A stretch of DNA of 64,000 nt from Nitrospirota bacterium (GTDB lineage Bacteria; Nitrospirota; UBA9217): assembly GCA_035623825.1 (NCBI GenBank), contig DASPSR010000022.1:151858-215857 (forward strand). Direction: 5' to 3'. The notes under the pieces are model-generated. The model saw nothing but the letters and a program-made list of their open reading frames with translations, was not told where the DNA came from and searched no databases. This document shows, in pieces, positions 52,278 to 55,665 of the stretch (the first letter of the stretch is position 1; each line of letters begins with the position of its first letter). The position numbers and the translations under genes are program-made.

Positions 52278-52388
52278 TTATTTCCCTTTCTTGGTAGCAG
52301 CTTCGGCCCTGGCTGCTTTTCGCTTTGACTTCAGGGTCTCTTCTTTCCGTTTGCGCCTGCGGCGCAGTTCACGCTGTCTCTCACGCAC
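52278..52388 (-). CDS. Small basic protein (36 aa, DUF6800-like)
   Basis: GTG start after GAAAGGAGAG; MRERQRELRRRRKRKEETLKSKRKAARAEAATKKGK*; promoter TTGACA-17-TATAGT at 52438-52466; stop 3 nt before the next gene. Confidence 0.65.
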   Translation of the reverse strand: MRERQRELRRRRKRKEETLKSKRKAARAEAATKKGK

Positions 52389-52614
52389 GGGAAGGTCTCT
52401 CCTTTCAAAGTGGTCCGGCTTATGTTTCAGACTGCATACTATATCTAAGATGGACTAATTTGTCAATAATATAGAAGGCTAAAGGCAATGGAGAAGGCAG
52501 GTGTATCTGGTCAGGAAGTGAATGCGCTTTTTCGTCCTTCTTCTGGAGTCCGCTCTGATTTTTTTCTTGATTTATTTCATCCGATAGATTAGATTATAGC
52601 CGCGTTTACGGCAG

Positions 52615-52690
52615 GGGCGAGTAGCTCAGCTGGGAGAGCACCGCGTTCGCAATGCGGGGGTCGAGGGTTCGAATCCCTTCTCGTCCACCA
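52615..52690 (+). tRNA. tRNA-Ala (anticodon CGC)
   Basis: 76 nt cloverleaf, acceptor GGGCGAG/CTCGTCC with G3.U70, anticodon loop TTCGCAA, GGTTCGAATCC T-arm, encoded CCA. Confidence 0.97.
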
Positions 52691-53116
52691 TTCAGTTTTC
52701 TTTCCTTTCAAACAGATAAATCCCAAAAACAATCCATTTTTTTACACGGTTGGTACACGAAAAGGTGCCCTCGCAAATGCGAGGGCCTTCTTGTCTTGCG
52801 GAACCAAAAAGGTTACAGTCAAAAACAGTAGAGAGGATACAAGAATGAGGCCCATGGCAACGAGGGCTTCTCAAAATACCTCTCTGCCGAATTTGTGGTA
52901 GCGAACTTTGCCATTTCAATGGCTCGATCATGCTGACGATGTAACTAGTAGGCCCCCGGGAAACCGGGGGCATTAATAGGGCGGTTTATTTAGACAGCTT
53001 GAAGGCAGGAGGGATATATGAAAAAAATCCGCTTTTAAAGTTAGCAGTCACGAACAAATAATCCAGAGATCAACTTATTTTTTTTACAGATAACCGGCGC
53101 CGTAGCCATCGGGGTC

Positions 53117-53170
53117 AAAAAGTAAGGCCCTAAAACTCGTTCAAGTGGGCGAGAACAAGTATTTAGGGCC
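53117..53170 (-). terminator. Long intrinsic terminator hairpin inside the island relic
   Basis: GGCCCTAAATACTTGTTC...GAACGAGTTTTAGGGCC-TTACTTTTT. Confidence 0.6.
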
Positions 53171-53182
53171 ATAGCGATATAT

Positions 53183-53254
53183 GGGGCGCGGAATGGTTCC
53201 CTTTTAGGGTGCCCTTAAAAGAATCTTTGAGGGGCTTGATACTCCGGCGCTCCA
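53183..53254. ncRNA. Putative tRNA-like structured RNA (strand uncertain)
   Basis: 72-nt cloverleaf-like fold: GGGGCGC/GCGCTCC-A stem, GGAA-TGG-TTCC, CTTTTAGGG-TGC-CCTTAAAAG, GGGG-CTTGATA-CTCC. Confidence 0.45.
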
Positions 53255-53273
53255 GTTACACATCTTTTATTTG

Positions 53274-53302
53274 ATAATACCAAAAAAACATGATTTAGTC
53301 AA
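53274..53302 (-). promoter_or_regulatory. sigma70 promoter reading into the structured RNA and terminator
   Basis: TTGACT-17 nt-(TG)TATTAT. Confidence 0.6.
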
Positions 53303-53540
53303 GGTTTTTCGCACAGGAGGGTCTTGGTACGCAAGGGGTGTGCAAATCGAAAATAGCAGAAATTAAACCATTGAAATAATTGGGCAATAAGTCTAAGAGT
53401 CGAGGGGTCGAATCCGTTCTCGTCCATTAAGTCATTTCCCCTGGCTGAGACAACCAGTTTCTCCCGCAGTCTCAGCGCGACGCCGTCCGGCGTGAAAGCC
53501 GGAGTGTTGAGAGTGCTGGCAGCCCCCGTATTTTTGGATA

Positions 53541-53569
53541 TTGACAGTAATCGACATCCACGTTACAAT
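53541..53569 (+). promoter_or_regulatory. sigma70 promoter upstream of the sensor kinase
   Basis: TTGACA-17 nt-TACAAT. Confidence 0.65.
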
Positions 53570-53630
53570 ATCGGAGCGATTCTATCGACTTATATCAAGG
53601 AATATTCGACAAAAATCCACCAGACATGAG

Positions 53631-53825
53631 AAACAGCTTGATGATATCGTTCGAAATGTGCTCCATGCAGCGCTTCTGGCCATGCCGAAAGACGCGGCAG
53701 GCGCCGAGAAGTAGAAAGACCCCGGGGTGCGTCTGTTCACGTGAGCAGAGGCAGTGTTTTCATACCCGGACATGAGCATGCCGGGCGTTCTGCCTGGAGT
53801 TTCATGCCGAAACACGCCCATTTAA
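53631..53825 (+). pseudogene. Decayed C-terminal fragment of a PhnD-like substrate-binding protein
   Basis: KQLDDIVRNVLHAALLAMPKDAAGAEK*KDPGVRLFT*AEAVFSY resembles phosphate/phosphonate-binding protein C-termini; two in-frame stops; ends 1 nt before the kinase ATG. Confidence 0.45.
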
Positions 53826-53826
53826 G

Positions 53827-55665
53827 ATGAAGAAGAAGATCATCATAGTCCTGAGCATTGTTTCCGTGCTCTTGCTCCTCGGCGGCATCTTTCTCATCAG
53901 GGCAATCGATGCCAACGCATCGAAGTTCGATGAGATAATCATGTTCCACGGGGTTGAGAACCTGAGAGAAAACCTCCTGCTGAGTATCCGCGATGTAGAA
54001 GCAGACCTGTATTCGCAAAGCACACGACAATCAGAGAGCGCAGAAGCGGTCGAGAGCCACGTCATAGTAATGGGGGACAGGATAAACACCTGTTTTAATT
54101 GTCACCATGTGGAGAGCGTGCTGGAGCGGCTCCACGATCTGCGTCATCAGATCGACCAGTACGGTGATGCAGTAAACAAGGTGTTGACCCTCAAGGGGAG
54201 TGCCGGCCAGTTTCAGGCGGAACAGGAGAGGGCCCATCTCATCGGGGATTCGCTCATCAATAAAGTCAATACCATGATCGTCATGACCAGCAGGAGGCTC
54301 GCCGAACAGACTGAAGACGCCAGAGAACAGGTCCACCGTACAAGGATATTCCTGATCATGCTTGTTGCCACCGGTCCGCTGCTTGTAGCTGTATTGGCCT
54401 TTACAGTGGTGCGGGGCGTCACGGGGCCGATCAATGTTCTGCTCGATGCGACGAGAAAATTGAAAACAGGCAATCTGGAGCACCGTATAGAGGGGCTGCG
54501 GGATGAGTTCGGCGAGCTGGCTGTCGGATTTAATACAATGGCAAGCTCGTTGAAGGAACAGGTGCAAAAAATAGAGGAAAGCGAGAAGCGTTACCGTCTT
54601 TTGTTCGAAAGCGCGGGAGATGCTATTTTCATTCTGGATGCCGAAGGGGATCGGCAGGGGAACATCGTTGCTGCCAATCAGGCCGCGGTAGCGATGCATG
54701 GCTATTCCCATGACGAACTGCTGAAATTAAATATACGAGACATTGATACCGCCGAAGAAGCTGCAAAAGTTGCTGATCGGTTTCGGCGAATATTCGCCGG
54801 AGAATGGATCAAGGCGGAGATCAACCATATCAGGAAAGACGGCACGGTATTCCCTCTTGAAGTAAACGCCGGGCTGCTCGAATTTGGCAACCACCGCTAT
54901 ATTCTAGCCATCGATCGTGACATCACTGAGCGGAAACAGGCTGAAGAAACGCTTCAACGAACTGAACAGCTCAAGGTGGCAGGAGAGCTGGCAACGGGAC
55001 TCGCGCACGAGATCAAGAACCCCCTTGCCGGCATCAAGGCATCGATCGAGGTCCTCTCCACGGTACCGTATCTGCCGGAAGACGACAAGGGGATTCTCAT
55101 GCAAGTGATCGGAGAGATCAAGCGGATAGAATCTTTGATAAAGGGTCTCCTCAATTTTGCCAGGCCGTCCCGGCCCCGGTTCGACGATACGGATGTGAAT
55201 GCCGTCCTCGACGCAGTCGCATACCTGGTGCTGCAAAGCCCGTCTCGCGTGCCGGGAATGCTGCGGGGGATCACGATCGTGAAGGATTTCGACCGCAACC
55301 TTCCGGTAATCACGGCCGATCCTATGCAGCTGAAGCAGGTATTCATGAACCTGCTCCTGAATGCCGTTGACGCCATGCAGGACGGCGGCATCTTGATCAT
55401 GAAAACCCGGTTCGACACGGCAACTCAGGCCGTATGGGTGGAAATATCCAATACCGGCAGGGAACTGGACGCAGCGGTGATCGACAAGATCTTCCAGCCC
55501 TTCTTCACGACAAAACCGAAGGGAACTGGGTTGGGACTGGCGATATCGAAACGGCTGGTCGAGGAACACGGAGGAAGAATCGGCGTTGCACGGAACCCGG
55601 GCGGAGGCGCCATATTTAACATAAGCCTGCCCGTAATCCAGTCCGAACGAGTGCACTCATTTTGA
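53827..55665 (+). CDS. Membrane sensor histidine kinase (periplasmic CxxCH, HAMP, PAS, HisKA, HATPase)
   Basis: Two TMs, CFNCH in the periplasmic loop, HAMP (DEFGELA..FN), PAS, LAHEIKNPL, QVFMNLLLNA, PFFTTK..GTGLGL. Confidence 0.93.
   Translation: MKKKIIIVLSIVSVLLLLGGIFLIRAIDANASKFDEIIMFHGVENLRENLLLSIRDVEADLYSQSTRQSESAEAVESHVIVMGDRINTCFNCHHVESVLERLHDLRHQIDQYGDAVNKVLTLKGSAGQFQAEQERAHLIGDSLINKVNTMIVMTSRRLAEQTEDAREQVHRTRIFLIMLVATGPLLVAVLAFTVVRGVTGPINVLLDATRKLKTGNLEHRIEGLRDEFGELAVGFNTMASSLKEQVQKIEESEKRYRLLFESAGDAIFILDAEGDRQGNIVAANQAAVAMHGYSHDELLKLNIRDIDTAEEAAKVADRFRRIFAGEWIKAEINHIRKDGTVFPLEVNAGLLEFGNHRYILAIDRDITERKQAEETLQRTEQLKVAGELATGLAHEIKNPLAGIKASIEVLSTVPYLPEDDKGILMQVIGEIKRIESLIKGLLNFARPSRPRFDDTDVNAVLDAVAYLVLQSPSRVPGMLRGITIVKDFDRNLPVITADPMQLKQVFMNLLLNAVDAMQDGGILIMKTRFDTATQAVWVEISNTGRELDAAVIDKIFQPFFTTKPKGTGLGLAISKRLVEEHGGRIGVARNPGGGAIFNISLPVIQSERVHSF

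Follow-up and report, generated by a model that had tools for sequence, protein, structure and literature searches.

The DNA considered here, called the window throughout, is a stretch of 64,000 nucleotides (nt) from a Nitrospirota bacterium of the UBA9217 lineage (assembly GCA_035623825.1, contig DASPSR010000022.1, positions 151,858 to 215,857), and positions are given in window coordinates. It contains a tRNA-Ala gene, the 3' end of which is repeated downstream (28-nt direct repeat, 26/28 identical, spacing 739), and the interval enclosed by this repeat harbors a 72-nt segment with the outline of a tRNA cloverleaf (Table 1). No credible gene was found within 52691-53398, and no homology was detected between this relic and the proteins of its neighbours. 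A preliminary description, made from the sequence alone, had proposed that the segment is an undescribed tRNA mimic, or an antisense or attenuator immunity module, which outlasted the genes of an integrated element. Comparison with other genomes (designated here by handles, the window genome being G000) indicates that the segment is a genuine, if worn, representative of a small tRNA-like family derived from tRNA-Ala and carried by the mobile DNA of Nitrospirota. The idea of an undescribed tRNA mimic within the remnant of an integrated element was borne out; no tRNA or Rfam match was obtained and a family of homologs was found.

In the window, the acceptor-like stem is formed by GGGGCGC (53183-53189) and GCGCTCC (53247-53253), includes G3.T70 and is followed by an A at 53254, in the place of A73. 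The cloverleaf is completed by a mini D arm (a GGAA/TTCC hairpin with a TGG loop), a central arm of 9 bp (CTTTTAGGG-TGC-CCTTAAAAG) and a T-like arm of 4 bp with the loop CTTGATA. This last arm is degenerate, reading GGGG / CUUGAUA / CUCC at the RNA level with one G.U pair and a bulged G. The element has no U8, 7-nt anticodon loop, TTCRA or CCA, and it is single copy in its own genome. All the features that had been listed for the cloverleaf were present. ARAGORN did not call the element and, at E<=10 over 52300-54000 (1.7 kb), Rfam returned nothing at this place, the tRNA model included, while both retrieved the real tRNA-Ala; no strong match to a known family thus speaks against its novelty. 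The fold energy of the plus strand is -30 kcal/mol (z score -2.27, 5/200 shuffles as good), a modest value, and that of the minus strand is -24 kcal/mol (z score -2.20).

Table 1. Features of the tRNA-Ala locus and of the tRNA-like module in the window
Feature	Positions	Strand	Basis or remark
tRNA-Ala(CGC) gene, integration target	52615..52690	+	ARAGORN; Rfam tRNA, 63.9 bits
Left attachment-site (att) copy, the 3' 28 nt of tRNA-Ala	52660-52687		repeat family D1
Integrase-less remnant of an integrated element, 708 bp, from the tRNA 3' end to its copy	52691..53398		att repeats
Weak sense promoter-like site TTTAAA-17-AATAAT, upstream of the module	53034..53062	+	9/12
Near copy GATAACCGGCGC of 53238-53250 (GATACTCCGGCGC)	53089..53100	+	at the place of the relatives' hairpin P1
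Long hairpin P2	53126..53170	both strands considered	fold z score, compensatory changes
Spacer between P2 and the element, 12 nt, ATAGCGATATAT	53171..53182	+	
tRNA-like element, 72 nt	53183..53254	+	covariance model R2; BLAST to G287
T-rich trailer after the element, also the transcribed start of the predicted antisense RNA	53255..53273	+	
Antisense promoter TTGACT-17-TATTAT, extended -10 (TG)	53302-53274	-	scan, 10/12
attR-type copy of the tRNA-Ala 3' end	53399..53426	+	93% identity

The existence of a family is supported by a covariance model, R2, built from the copies of three other genomes (G180, G354 and G287) and containing no window sequence. Over the 64-kb window, R2 matched exactly 53183-53254 on the plus strand (43.5 bits, E 1.4e-7); its next match was the genuine tRNA-Ala, 570 bases upstream of the element, with 13.8 bits. 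On the 5'-truncated copy of G003, a genome of the same genus, it scored 23.7 bits, and both R2 and another model, R1, match the plus strand only. As R2 recovers the same ends and the same strand without having seen the window, the boundaries of the cloverleaf are those of a real homologous family.

The members were reached by several routes. When 53100-53310 was compared by BLAST with 401 genomes from across the phylum, a single additional genuine match emerged, in G287 (73% identical over 53181-53254). G180 carries the hairpin and the element, 69% identical, and G354 was first detected by a BLAST match to the T arm only. With G558, which emerged from further scans (3/151 genomes), full copies are present in G287, G180, G354 and G558, and the G003 copy is cut at its 5' side, with always one copy per genome; G422, obtained in a scan yielding 2/151, has the upstream hairpins P1 and P2 and a transposase gene and no tRNA-like element. 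At E<=0.01, R1 gave 32 matches, among them three real members in 151 genomes. The 29 others (27-32 bits), like the T-arm BLAST matches, were ordinary tRNAs where checked (3 loci, and 28 loci rescored), with the locus L041 of G354 as the only member. Among 151 relatives of G354, only G354 itself has the element (1/151), and among the 64 genomes of the taxonomic family of the window genome, which is the whole order, only G000 and G003 do. No match was obtained in viral contigs (three patterns), in 50,697 phage records or in plasmids. The family is thus rare and patchy.

Other sources bear on this spread. None of 15 public sequencing runs listed was of RNA, all of them being DNA runs of peat or soil metagenomes, and comparison of the contigs of four such runs with the window revealed neither joints nor an empty-site form. 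In one run (X7, record 11), a 253-nt peat-metagenome contig holds a divergent copy of 53162-53254, with 15 differences and a 3-base gap; the six changes that were listed resemble the G287 type. This copy suggests that the same habitat contains more variants than the genome collections show. A search with the palindromic 21-mer of the window, using one genome per species, returned only G003. The central-arm palindrome CCTTTTAGGGnnCCCTTAAAAG is also common to the phage-like metagenome contigs L022 (2527-2547), L023 (93-113), L027 (1123-1143) and L028 (2420-2440), with 26/27 bases matching in L022. These contigs have HNH endonuclease, lysozyme-like and metalloprotease-like frames and a conserved GTTRCTAGGTCACGTAGCC block after the palindrome. 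They were rejected as members of the family, as neither R1 nor Rfam matched them, and may carry a separate structured element.

Alignment of the copies reveals a marked contrast between the acceptor and the rest of the molecule. The pairs G1-C72, G2-C71, G3.U70, G4-C69 and C5-G68, together with A73, are identical in all six lineages (the G003 copy starting at position 9), and GGGGCG(C)/GCGCUCC is invariant, G287 and G558 being one 5' base short. Over four copies, mean pairwise identity reaches 100% for the acceptor 3' strand with A73 and 93% for the acceptor 5' strand, against 76% for the T arm, 76% for the D-like arm and 34% for the central arm. G3.U70 is the identity element recognized by alanyl-tRNA synthetase (AlaRS). 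Since the Ala-type acceptor is identical in six lineages while the central arm is at 34%, its alanine character is not coincidental, as had initially been allowed for. The TGC at the apex of the central arm, previously read as an Ala anticodon, has by contrast no counterpart in any relative and is a coincidence; the relatives show instead a loosely conserved CYUUAMAA in the central loop.

The D-like arm is a 3-4-bp stem placed directly after the acceptor, with a UGG(U/A) loop in all copies. The T stem has 5 bp and its loop is canonical or nearly so in the four full relatives, UUCGAAU in G287, UUCAAUC in G180, UUCAAUU in G354 and UUCGACA in G558, while the window departs from the canonical T arm (5 bp, UUCRANY loop). 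CCA is encoded by G354, CC by G287 and G558, and neither by G000, G003 or G180. Acceptor pairs 1-5 and A73 are those of the genome's own tRNA-Ala(GGC), and these shared positions indicate that the element was almost certainly derived from a tRNA-Ala gene. Derivation from transfer-messenger RNA (tmRNA) was rejected, as the genome's own tmRNA (210 bits, elsewhere) has different 5' and 3' ends.

The plus strand is more stable than its complement in 5/5 copies, by 0.3-9.3 kcal/mol, because of the invariant G3.U70 and further G.U pairs (on the complement, G3.U70 becomes an A.C mismatch). The z scores are -2.27 in the window, -2.28 in G180, -4.26 in G354, +0.22 in G287 and -0.13 in G558, and G180 takes up a clean cloverleaf at minimum energy. 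With regard to the support the preliminary description had looked to, homologs exist in five other genomes, compensatory changes are seen in P2 and covariation is essentially absent from the tRNA-like stems, while the fold of the window exceeds shuffled controls modestly. The tRNA-like reading is accordingly one of motif content, pattern of constraint and similarity to the model, and not of covariation.

The G003 copy can be read in two ways. From 53191 to 53288 it is identical to the window at 96/98 positions, including 34/34 over 53255-53288, and from there to the att copy (107 aligned positions) at 76/107, the drop being abrupt at 53288/53289; the flanking genes of both genomes are 76-82% identical. 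Near-identity over the element and the -10 hexamer of the antisense promoter may reflect continued function, perhaps of an antisense RNA, or equally a recent transfer. The latter is part of an explanation in which the window copy, or the family as a whole, is a functionless and decaying tRNA-Ala pseudogene, and G003 resembles the window through recent horizontal transfer. The location of the window copy in a gutted 708-bp relic, its degenerate T loop, the lack of covariation, the break at 53288/53289, which has the look of a recombination or transfer boundary, and the rarity of the family (1/151, 3/151 and 2/151 genomes) all agree with decay. This explanation is nonetheless quite unlikely. A derived architecture, in which the D arm has 4 bp and a UGG loop, the anticodon loop is missing and the Ala acceptor is intact, has been kept in six lineages with a central arm at 34%; G3.U70 and the T loop would be expected to decay as fast as the rest; and the linked hairpin P2 shows compensatory changes.

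P2 is the second conserved component of the module. Its fold has a z score of -6.5 on the minus strand, where 0/200 shuffles are as good, and of -4.4 on the plus strand; read in the minus direction, it precedes UUACUUUUU (53125-53113). It corresponds to the long minus-strand terminator noticed earlier, and is likely to be, in the window, the terminator of the predicted antisense RNA; a simple terminator scan did not list it, its loop being too long for the scan. Pairs were counted from the ends by script, as MAFFT had misplaced one base of the window copy. Pairs 1-9 are Watson-Crick in 4/4 sequences (G000, G287, G180 and G422) and this outer portion of nine pairs is retained throughout the family. 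Both bases have changed at pairs 2, 5, 8 (with three types), 9 and 11; further compensated changes were read by eye in G558. Because the stem is Watson-Crick throughout, P2 does not tell the strand. The spacer that separates P2 from the element has 10-22 nt in the relatives, where it reads nTGGYGAY, and the window falls within this range. G354 has at the same place a shorter hairpin followed, on the minus strand, by UUUUUUG. The loop motif GCGAG resembles CS-6 of an ssoA-like single-strand origin, an idea that was dropped.

Beyond the element, T-runs occur in G180, G287, G354 and G558 as in the window, and a promoter-like site lies on the opposite strand, just 3' of the element and pointing into it, in every lineage. 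The TTGACT-17-TATTAT site that had been picked out in the window was found again by the scan. Its equivalents are TTTACA-16-TATAAT in G558 (scan, 11/12, with TG, ending 7 nt from the element), TTTATA-16-TACAAT in G180 (scan, 9/12, with TG, ending 10 nt from the element) and, by eye, TTGACA-17-TATTAA after TG in G287 and TGATATACT in G354. Between G000 and G003, the antisense hexamers are kept at 12/12 positions (-35 6/6, -10 6/6) and the spacer at 13/17. The RNA predicted from this site would extend from ~53267 to ~53113 (~150 nt), and a 143-nt minus-strand stretch folds with a z score of -5.04. A predicted minus-strand unit running from promoter to terminator is hence a feature of the family too. 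On the sense strand, sites stronger than that of the window occur at the equivalent place in G354 (TTGACA-17-TAGATT, 10/12) and in G422 (10/12).

These data raise the question of whether the minus-strand small RNA, started at ~53267 by the promoter at 53302-53274 and ended at P2 near 53113, is the only functional product, the tRNA look being baggage of a captured tRNA-Ala gene. The constant place and orientation of the promoter-like site (by eye in G287 and G354), the hexamers retained where the spacer is not, the strong fold of P2 with its U-run in the window, the UUUUUUG tail of G354 and the stability of the 143-nt RNA speak for this possibility. It was judged unlikely, since conservation of 93-100% falls exactly on the tRNA identity determinants (acceptor, G3.U70, A73, T loop and D-loop GG), which are meaningless on the complement. 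Furthermore, the relatives have sense promoters or a co-oriented upstream gene, and in 4/6 lineages the minus-strand tail after P2 is just CUUCUCRUUAC.

Upstream of P2, the window retains little of what its relatives possess. The preliminary description had reported, beyond the terminator, a near copy of one arm of the element. This copy is real in the window and no demonstrable counterpart was found in the relatives; its pattern, defined after the fact, occurs twice in 64 kb against 0.11 expected, and 1/100 shuffles reaches two. In alignment A2, 53089-53100 is the place of a degenerate hairpin P1. In G180 (L043), G422 (L070), G287 (L037) and G558 (L114), this region contains a leader frame with a strong Shine-Dalgarno sequence and ATGAGA start, of 22-38 codons, which ends in or just past P2. 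Differences between the G180 and G422 frames fall at codon positions one to three as 6/3/6 (counted by hand), with no third-position bias, and G287 and G558, although closely related, use different reading frames; the leader frame is therefore probably not a conserved peptide. If translation matters at this leader, it would be the act of translation and not the peptide. A type I toxin-antitoxin system was dropped, as the leader peptide is not hydrophobic, and so was a primer-binding site, as there is no reverse transcriptase.

The complete unit is best seen in G558. Along the tRNA-like strand, a divergent winged-helix-like gene is followed by a promoter-like site, by GGAGG with the ATGAGA frame running into P1, by the motif GUAACGAGAAG and by P2; the spacer, the tRNA-like element and the T-run come next, and an IS1-family transposase gene begins 44 nt further on. 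The convergent antisense promoter is placed between the tRNA-like element and the start of this gene. The same core is present in G287, whose transposase matches PF03400 with 36.6 bits and NF033558 with 66 bits (NCBI cut-off 100). G354 has a sense promoter, the short hairpin, an element with CCA and an N-terminal fragment of the transposase. In these three genomes, the transposase lies 44-50 nt downstream of the element on the same strand. In G180, a leader frame including P1, then P2 and the element are all present, and the transposase is missing. In G422, the sense promoter and a leader frame including P1 precede P2; another small hairpin occupies the place of the element, and the transposase lies ~330 nt after P2. 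The transposase is single copy in G287, G354 and G422, adjoining the module each time, so that this is not a multi-copy insertion sequence. Homology (29% identity, E 9e-17) links the divergent genes lying upstream in G354 and G422, which matched no Pfam or NCBIfam family. No transposase match was found in G000 or G003, and tblastn gave no transposase remnant in the window, where the element is followed by 145 nt up to attR. The window thus lacks the leader start, P1, the downstream gene and a canonical T loop, while P2, the element and the antisense promoter persist.

Some features of these neighbourhoods were recorded in passing. The interval of G422 between P2 and the transposase (L070 1515-1760) comprises the small hairpin CCACGCC-TTT-GGTGTGG, TTGACA / GTCAA-type repeats and a 42-codon frame ahead of the IS1-family transposase. 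Past the transposase fragment of G354 (L113, G354:C18, 1882-3069), a frame of 179 aa that matched nothing in NCBIfam (E<=0.01) is accompanied by one on the other strand resembling, by look only, a restriction-modification specificity subunit. Pairing of the central loop with the ribosome site of the transposase was considered and dropped, being inconsistent between genomes.

How the window copy reached its present setting is illuminated by three other genomes of the genus (G001, G002 and G003). The 28-nt direct repeat is that of a tRNA-targeting integrative element, and no integrase remnant was found in the window by tblastn. In G003, an apparently intact gene for a tyrosine integrase (PF00589, 122.5 bits) comes after the corresponding tRNA and runs off the contig; a second contig starts inside the tRNA-like element and continues with an att copy, which matches the tRNA end across the aligned part, an old integrase remnant (E 1.8e-32) and a kinase gene. 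G001 has no such insert, and there the tRNA leads directly to this old integrase remnant, a pseudogene (tblastn E 1.9e-34), and the histidine-kinase gene. From the flanking repeat and these sister genomes, it follows that 52691-53398 is the gutted remnant of an element integrated in tandem at the tRNA-Ala gene. The tRNA-like segment, 145 nt inside attR, is in this comparison the end of the element furthest from the integrase.

The history of tandem integration is recorded by the C-terminal remnant of the older integrase, kept after the tRNA in G001 (L019, 460-1100) and after attR in G003 (L108, G003:C66, 230-900) and almost wholly deleted in the window (53427-53540). In G002, the tRNA-Ala/kinase interval (L018, G002:C93:15000-21000) is occupied by ~2.7 kb of unrelated inserted DNA whose small frames look secreted or membrane-like, and an rve-type transposase-like frame lies on the opposite side of the tRNA. 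Two more GC-rich hairpins occur inside the relic, at 52767-52786 and 52947-52972. The former (8 bp, GCCCTCGC / GCGAGGGC), 77 nt past the tRNA-Ala gene, was scored as a terminator in either orientation.

This position at the far end of an integrative element evokes the sib/tI region of lambda, a structured terminator beyond attP which lies downstream of int and, after integration, at the far end of the prophage. The G000/G003-type element could accordingly be the far arm of attP combined with a retroregulator, the minus-strand integrase transcript crossing attP in the excised circle to be terminated or cleaved there, and integration separating the two. The integrase of G003 indeed ends on the tRNA side, on the minus strand; the structured block stands 145-270 nt past the other att copy in the same direction and finishes with a hairpin and a U-run; and the repeated GATAnCCGGCGC motif could be an arm-type site. 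Such a function is very unlikely, because G180, G287, G354 and G558 carry the module without an adjoining integrase or att repeat, with a transposase instead. In addition, a promoter is located between the core and the hairpin, as it is not in lambda, and arm sites would not keep tRNA identity features.

An immunity function was also weighed. The phage P1 C4 and P4 CI RNAs are small, borne by mobile elements and dependent on RNase P, and the size of the segment, its tRNA-like fold and its setting in a mobile-element remnant would suit an RNase P-processed RNA of this type acting on a nearby target. This is highly improbable here. Neither C4 nor isrK nor another phage regulatory RNA was matched in the window (Rfam, E<=10) or in the relatives; in G354, the best preserved of them, isrK reached a mere 10.2 bits (E 6.4), and this on the other strand. 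A complementary target repeat was not found in the vicinity, phage records, viral contigs and plasmids gave no match, and the neighbours are transposase and winged-helix-like genes and not phage immunity genes. No target was found for the immunity or attenuator module of the preliminary description; the neighbour in the complete relatives is an IS1-family transposase and neither an immunity nor a repressor gene.

Collectively, these comparisons suggest that a sense tRNA-like leader and a cis-antisense RNA together control a gene of a mobile element. As an overall picture, this proposal appears to us evenly poised, and each single step is less secure. In such a mechanism, the sense leader would fold into an elbow of acceptor, T arm and D loop recognized by tRNA enzymes. 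RNase P would cut at G1, and 3' trimming, possibly followed by CCA addition and the action of AlaRS, would set free a tRNA mimic of Ala type whose alanine identity set is complete; the three PolyA_pol/CCA-type genes of the genome make CCA addition plausible. Cleavage would separate the downstream transposase mRNA from upstream or read-through transcripts, and the upstream RNA would end in P2. The antisense RNA of ~150 nt, starting at the 3' edge of the element and running back to P2, would pair with the leader, while its promoter would collide with sense transcription; both effects would keep expression of the mobile-element gene low, in the manner of the antisense control reported for IS10 (RNA-OUT), IS200 (art200) and ISPpu9. 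Transcription, processing, charging and regulation are what we infer from homology, architecture, synteny and promoter-like sites.

Several observations weigh against this model. The family is known from six lineages only, and the 96/98 identity to G003 could stem from recent transfer and not from selection. No copy is seen by ARAGORN or by the Rfam tRNA model. The stems are nearly invariant and covariation is absent: one both-sided change occurs in 16 pairs (in the D-like stem), and 165/500 shuffles are as good. Fold energies beat shuffles in 3/5 copies, and the minimum-energy fold of G354 is a rod and not a cloverleaf. The T loop is non-canonical in the window (CUUGAUA) and in G003 (CUUAAUA), CCA is encoded in 1/6 lineages, and the conserved central motif is buried by pairing in the 9-bp arm of the window. 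On the minus strand, the promoters of G287 and G354 were read by eye only, that of G287 failing the last-base rule of the scanner, and a convincing U-tract after P2 exists only in the window and in G354. Finally, the predicted antisense RNA would not cover the ribosome site of the transposase, unlike RNA-OUT; the window and G180 have no downstream transposase; and G422 has P1, P2 and the transposase without the tRNA-like element, which makes the parts separable.

The proposed sense-antisense leader can be situated among known systems. To our knowledge, few kinds of tRNA-like RNA have been recognized, namely tmRNA, the Y-RNA-like YrlA, viral 3' ends and mascRNA, each of which borrows tRNA enzymes. 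The element shares acceptor pairs 1-5 and A73 with the host tRNA-Ala(GGC), as an ordinary tRNA-Ala or its pseudogene would, and the T arm is canonical in four lineages; it differs from a tRNA by the lack of U8/N9, a D loop of 3-4 nt and the absence of a 7-nt anticodon loop. With tmRNA (RF00023) it has in common an Ala-type acceptor with G3.U70 and A73, a T arm, a reduced D region and no anticodon. The tmRNA model gave G354 a weak 17.4 bits, below the 47 bits set for a match, and did not match the window, and the family element has no pseudoknots or tag frame between its halves. From the P1 C4 and P4 CI RNAs it is set apart by the absence, at this locus, of a model match, a phage context or target repeats, and from lambda sib/tI by the occurrence of the module without integrase and by its internal promoter.

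The antisense side of the unit is reminiscent of the cis-antisense control of transposase leaders by IS10 RNA-OUT, IS200 art200 and ISPpu9 Asr9/Ssr9 (PMC5006887, PMC4513863, PMC8450116). In these systems, a strong outward promoter near the transposase start is reported to make a small structured RNA complementary to the 5' leader of the transposase, and a comparable arrangement is predicted here from the promoter-like sites. The antisense RNA predicted here would start upstream of the ribosome site and cover a tRNA-like fold, and the transposase is of the IS1 family and single copy. In the literature searched, titles and first lines of abstracts describe no tRNA-like structure in a bacterial transposase leader. 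Both tRNA mimics and antisense-controlled transposase leaders are known kinds, and it is their combination and the family itself that appear to be new.

Although the window copy is a leftover, of value chiefly as a pointer to the family, it leads to a tRNA-Ala-derived mimic which keeps its alanine identity set while the rest drifts, beside a predicted sense/antisense pair and a transposase gene. If the mimic is expressed and processed, RNase P and possibly AlaRS would be tied to controlling mobile DNA in a phylum that has received little study.

Among Rfam models, mascRNA-menRNA (RF01684) is the nearest to the relatives. Its scores of 36.4 bits (E 3e-6) in G354 and 31.3 bits in G287 fall short of the gathering score (42.5), and it did not match the window copy. 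The likeness lies in a 7-bp acceptor, a tiny D hairpin, a short central arm, a canonical T arm and a length of ~60-70 nt, as well as in the location at the 3' side of a longer transcript, right after a stabilising structure. mascRNA itself is a vertebrate, nuclear RNA without Ala-type G3.U70 identity, and the likeness is one of shape, not of descent. A bacterial counterpart of MALAT1-mascRNA, put to use by mobile DNA, is possible though doubtful: RNase P would free a ~70-nt mimic, maybe with CCA and alanine, from the leader of an IS1-family transposase, P2 would cap the upstream RNA, the mRNA would be uncoupled, and the antisense RNA from the 3' end of the mimic would restrain the unit. If so, the family would represent a new class of tRNA mimic in bacteria and, for a transposase, a new means of insulation and control.

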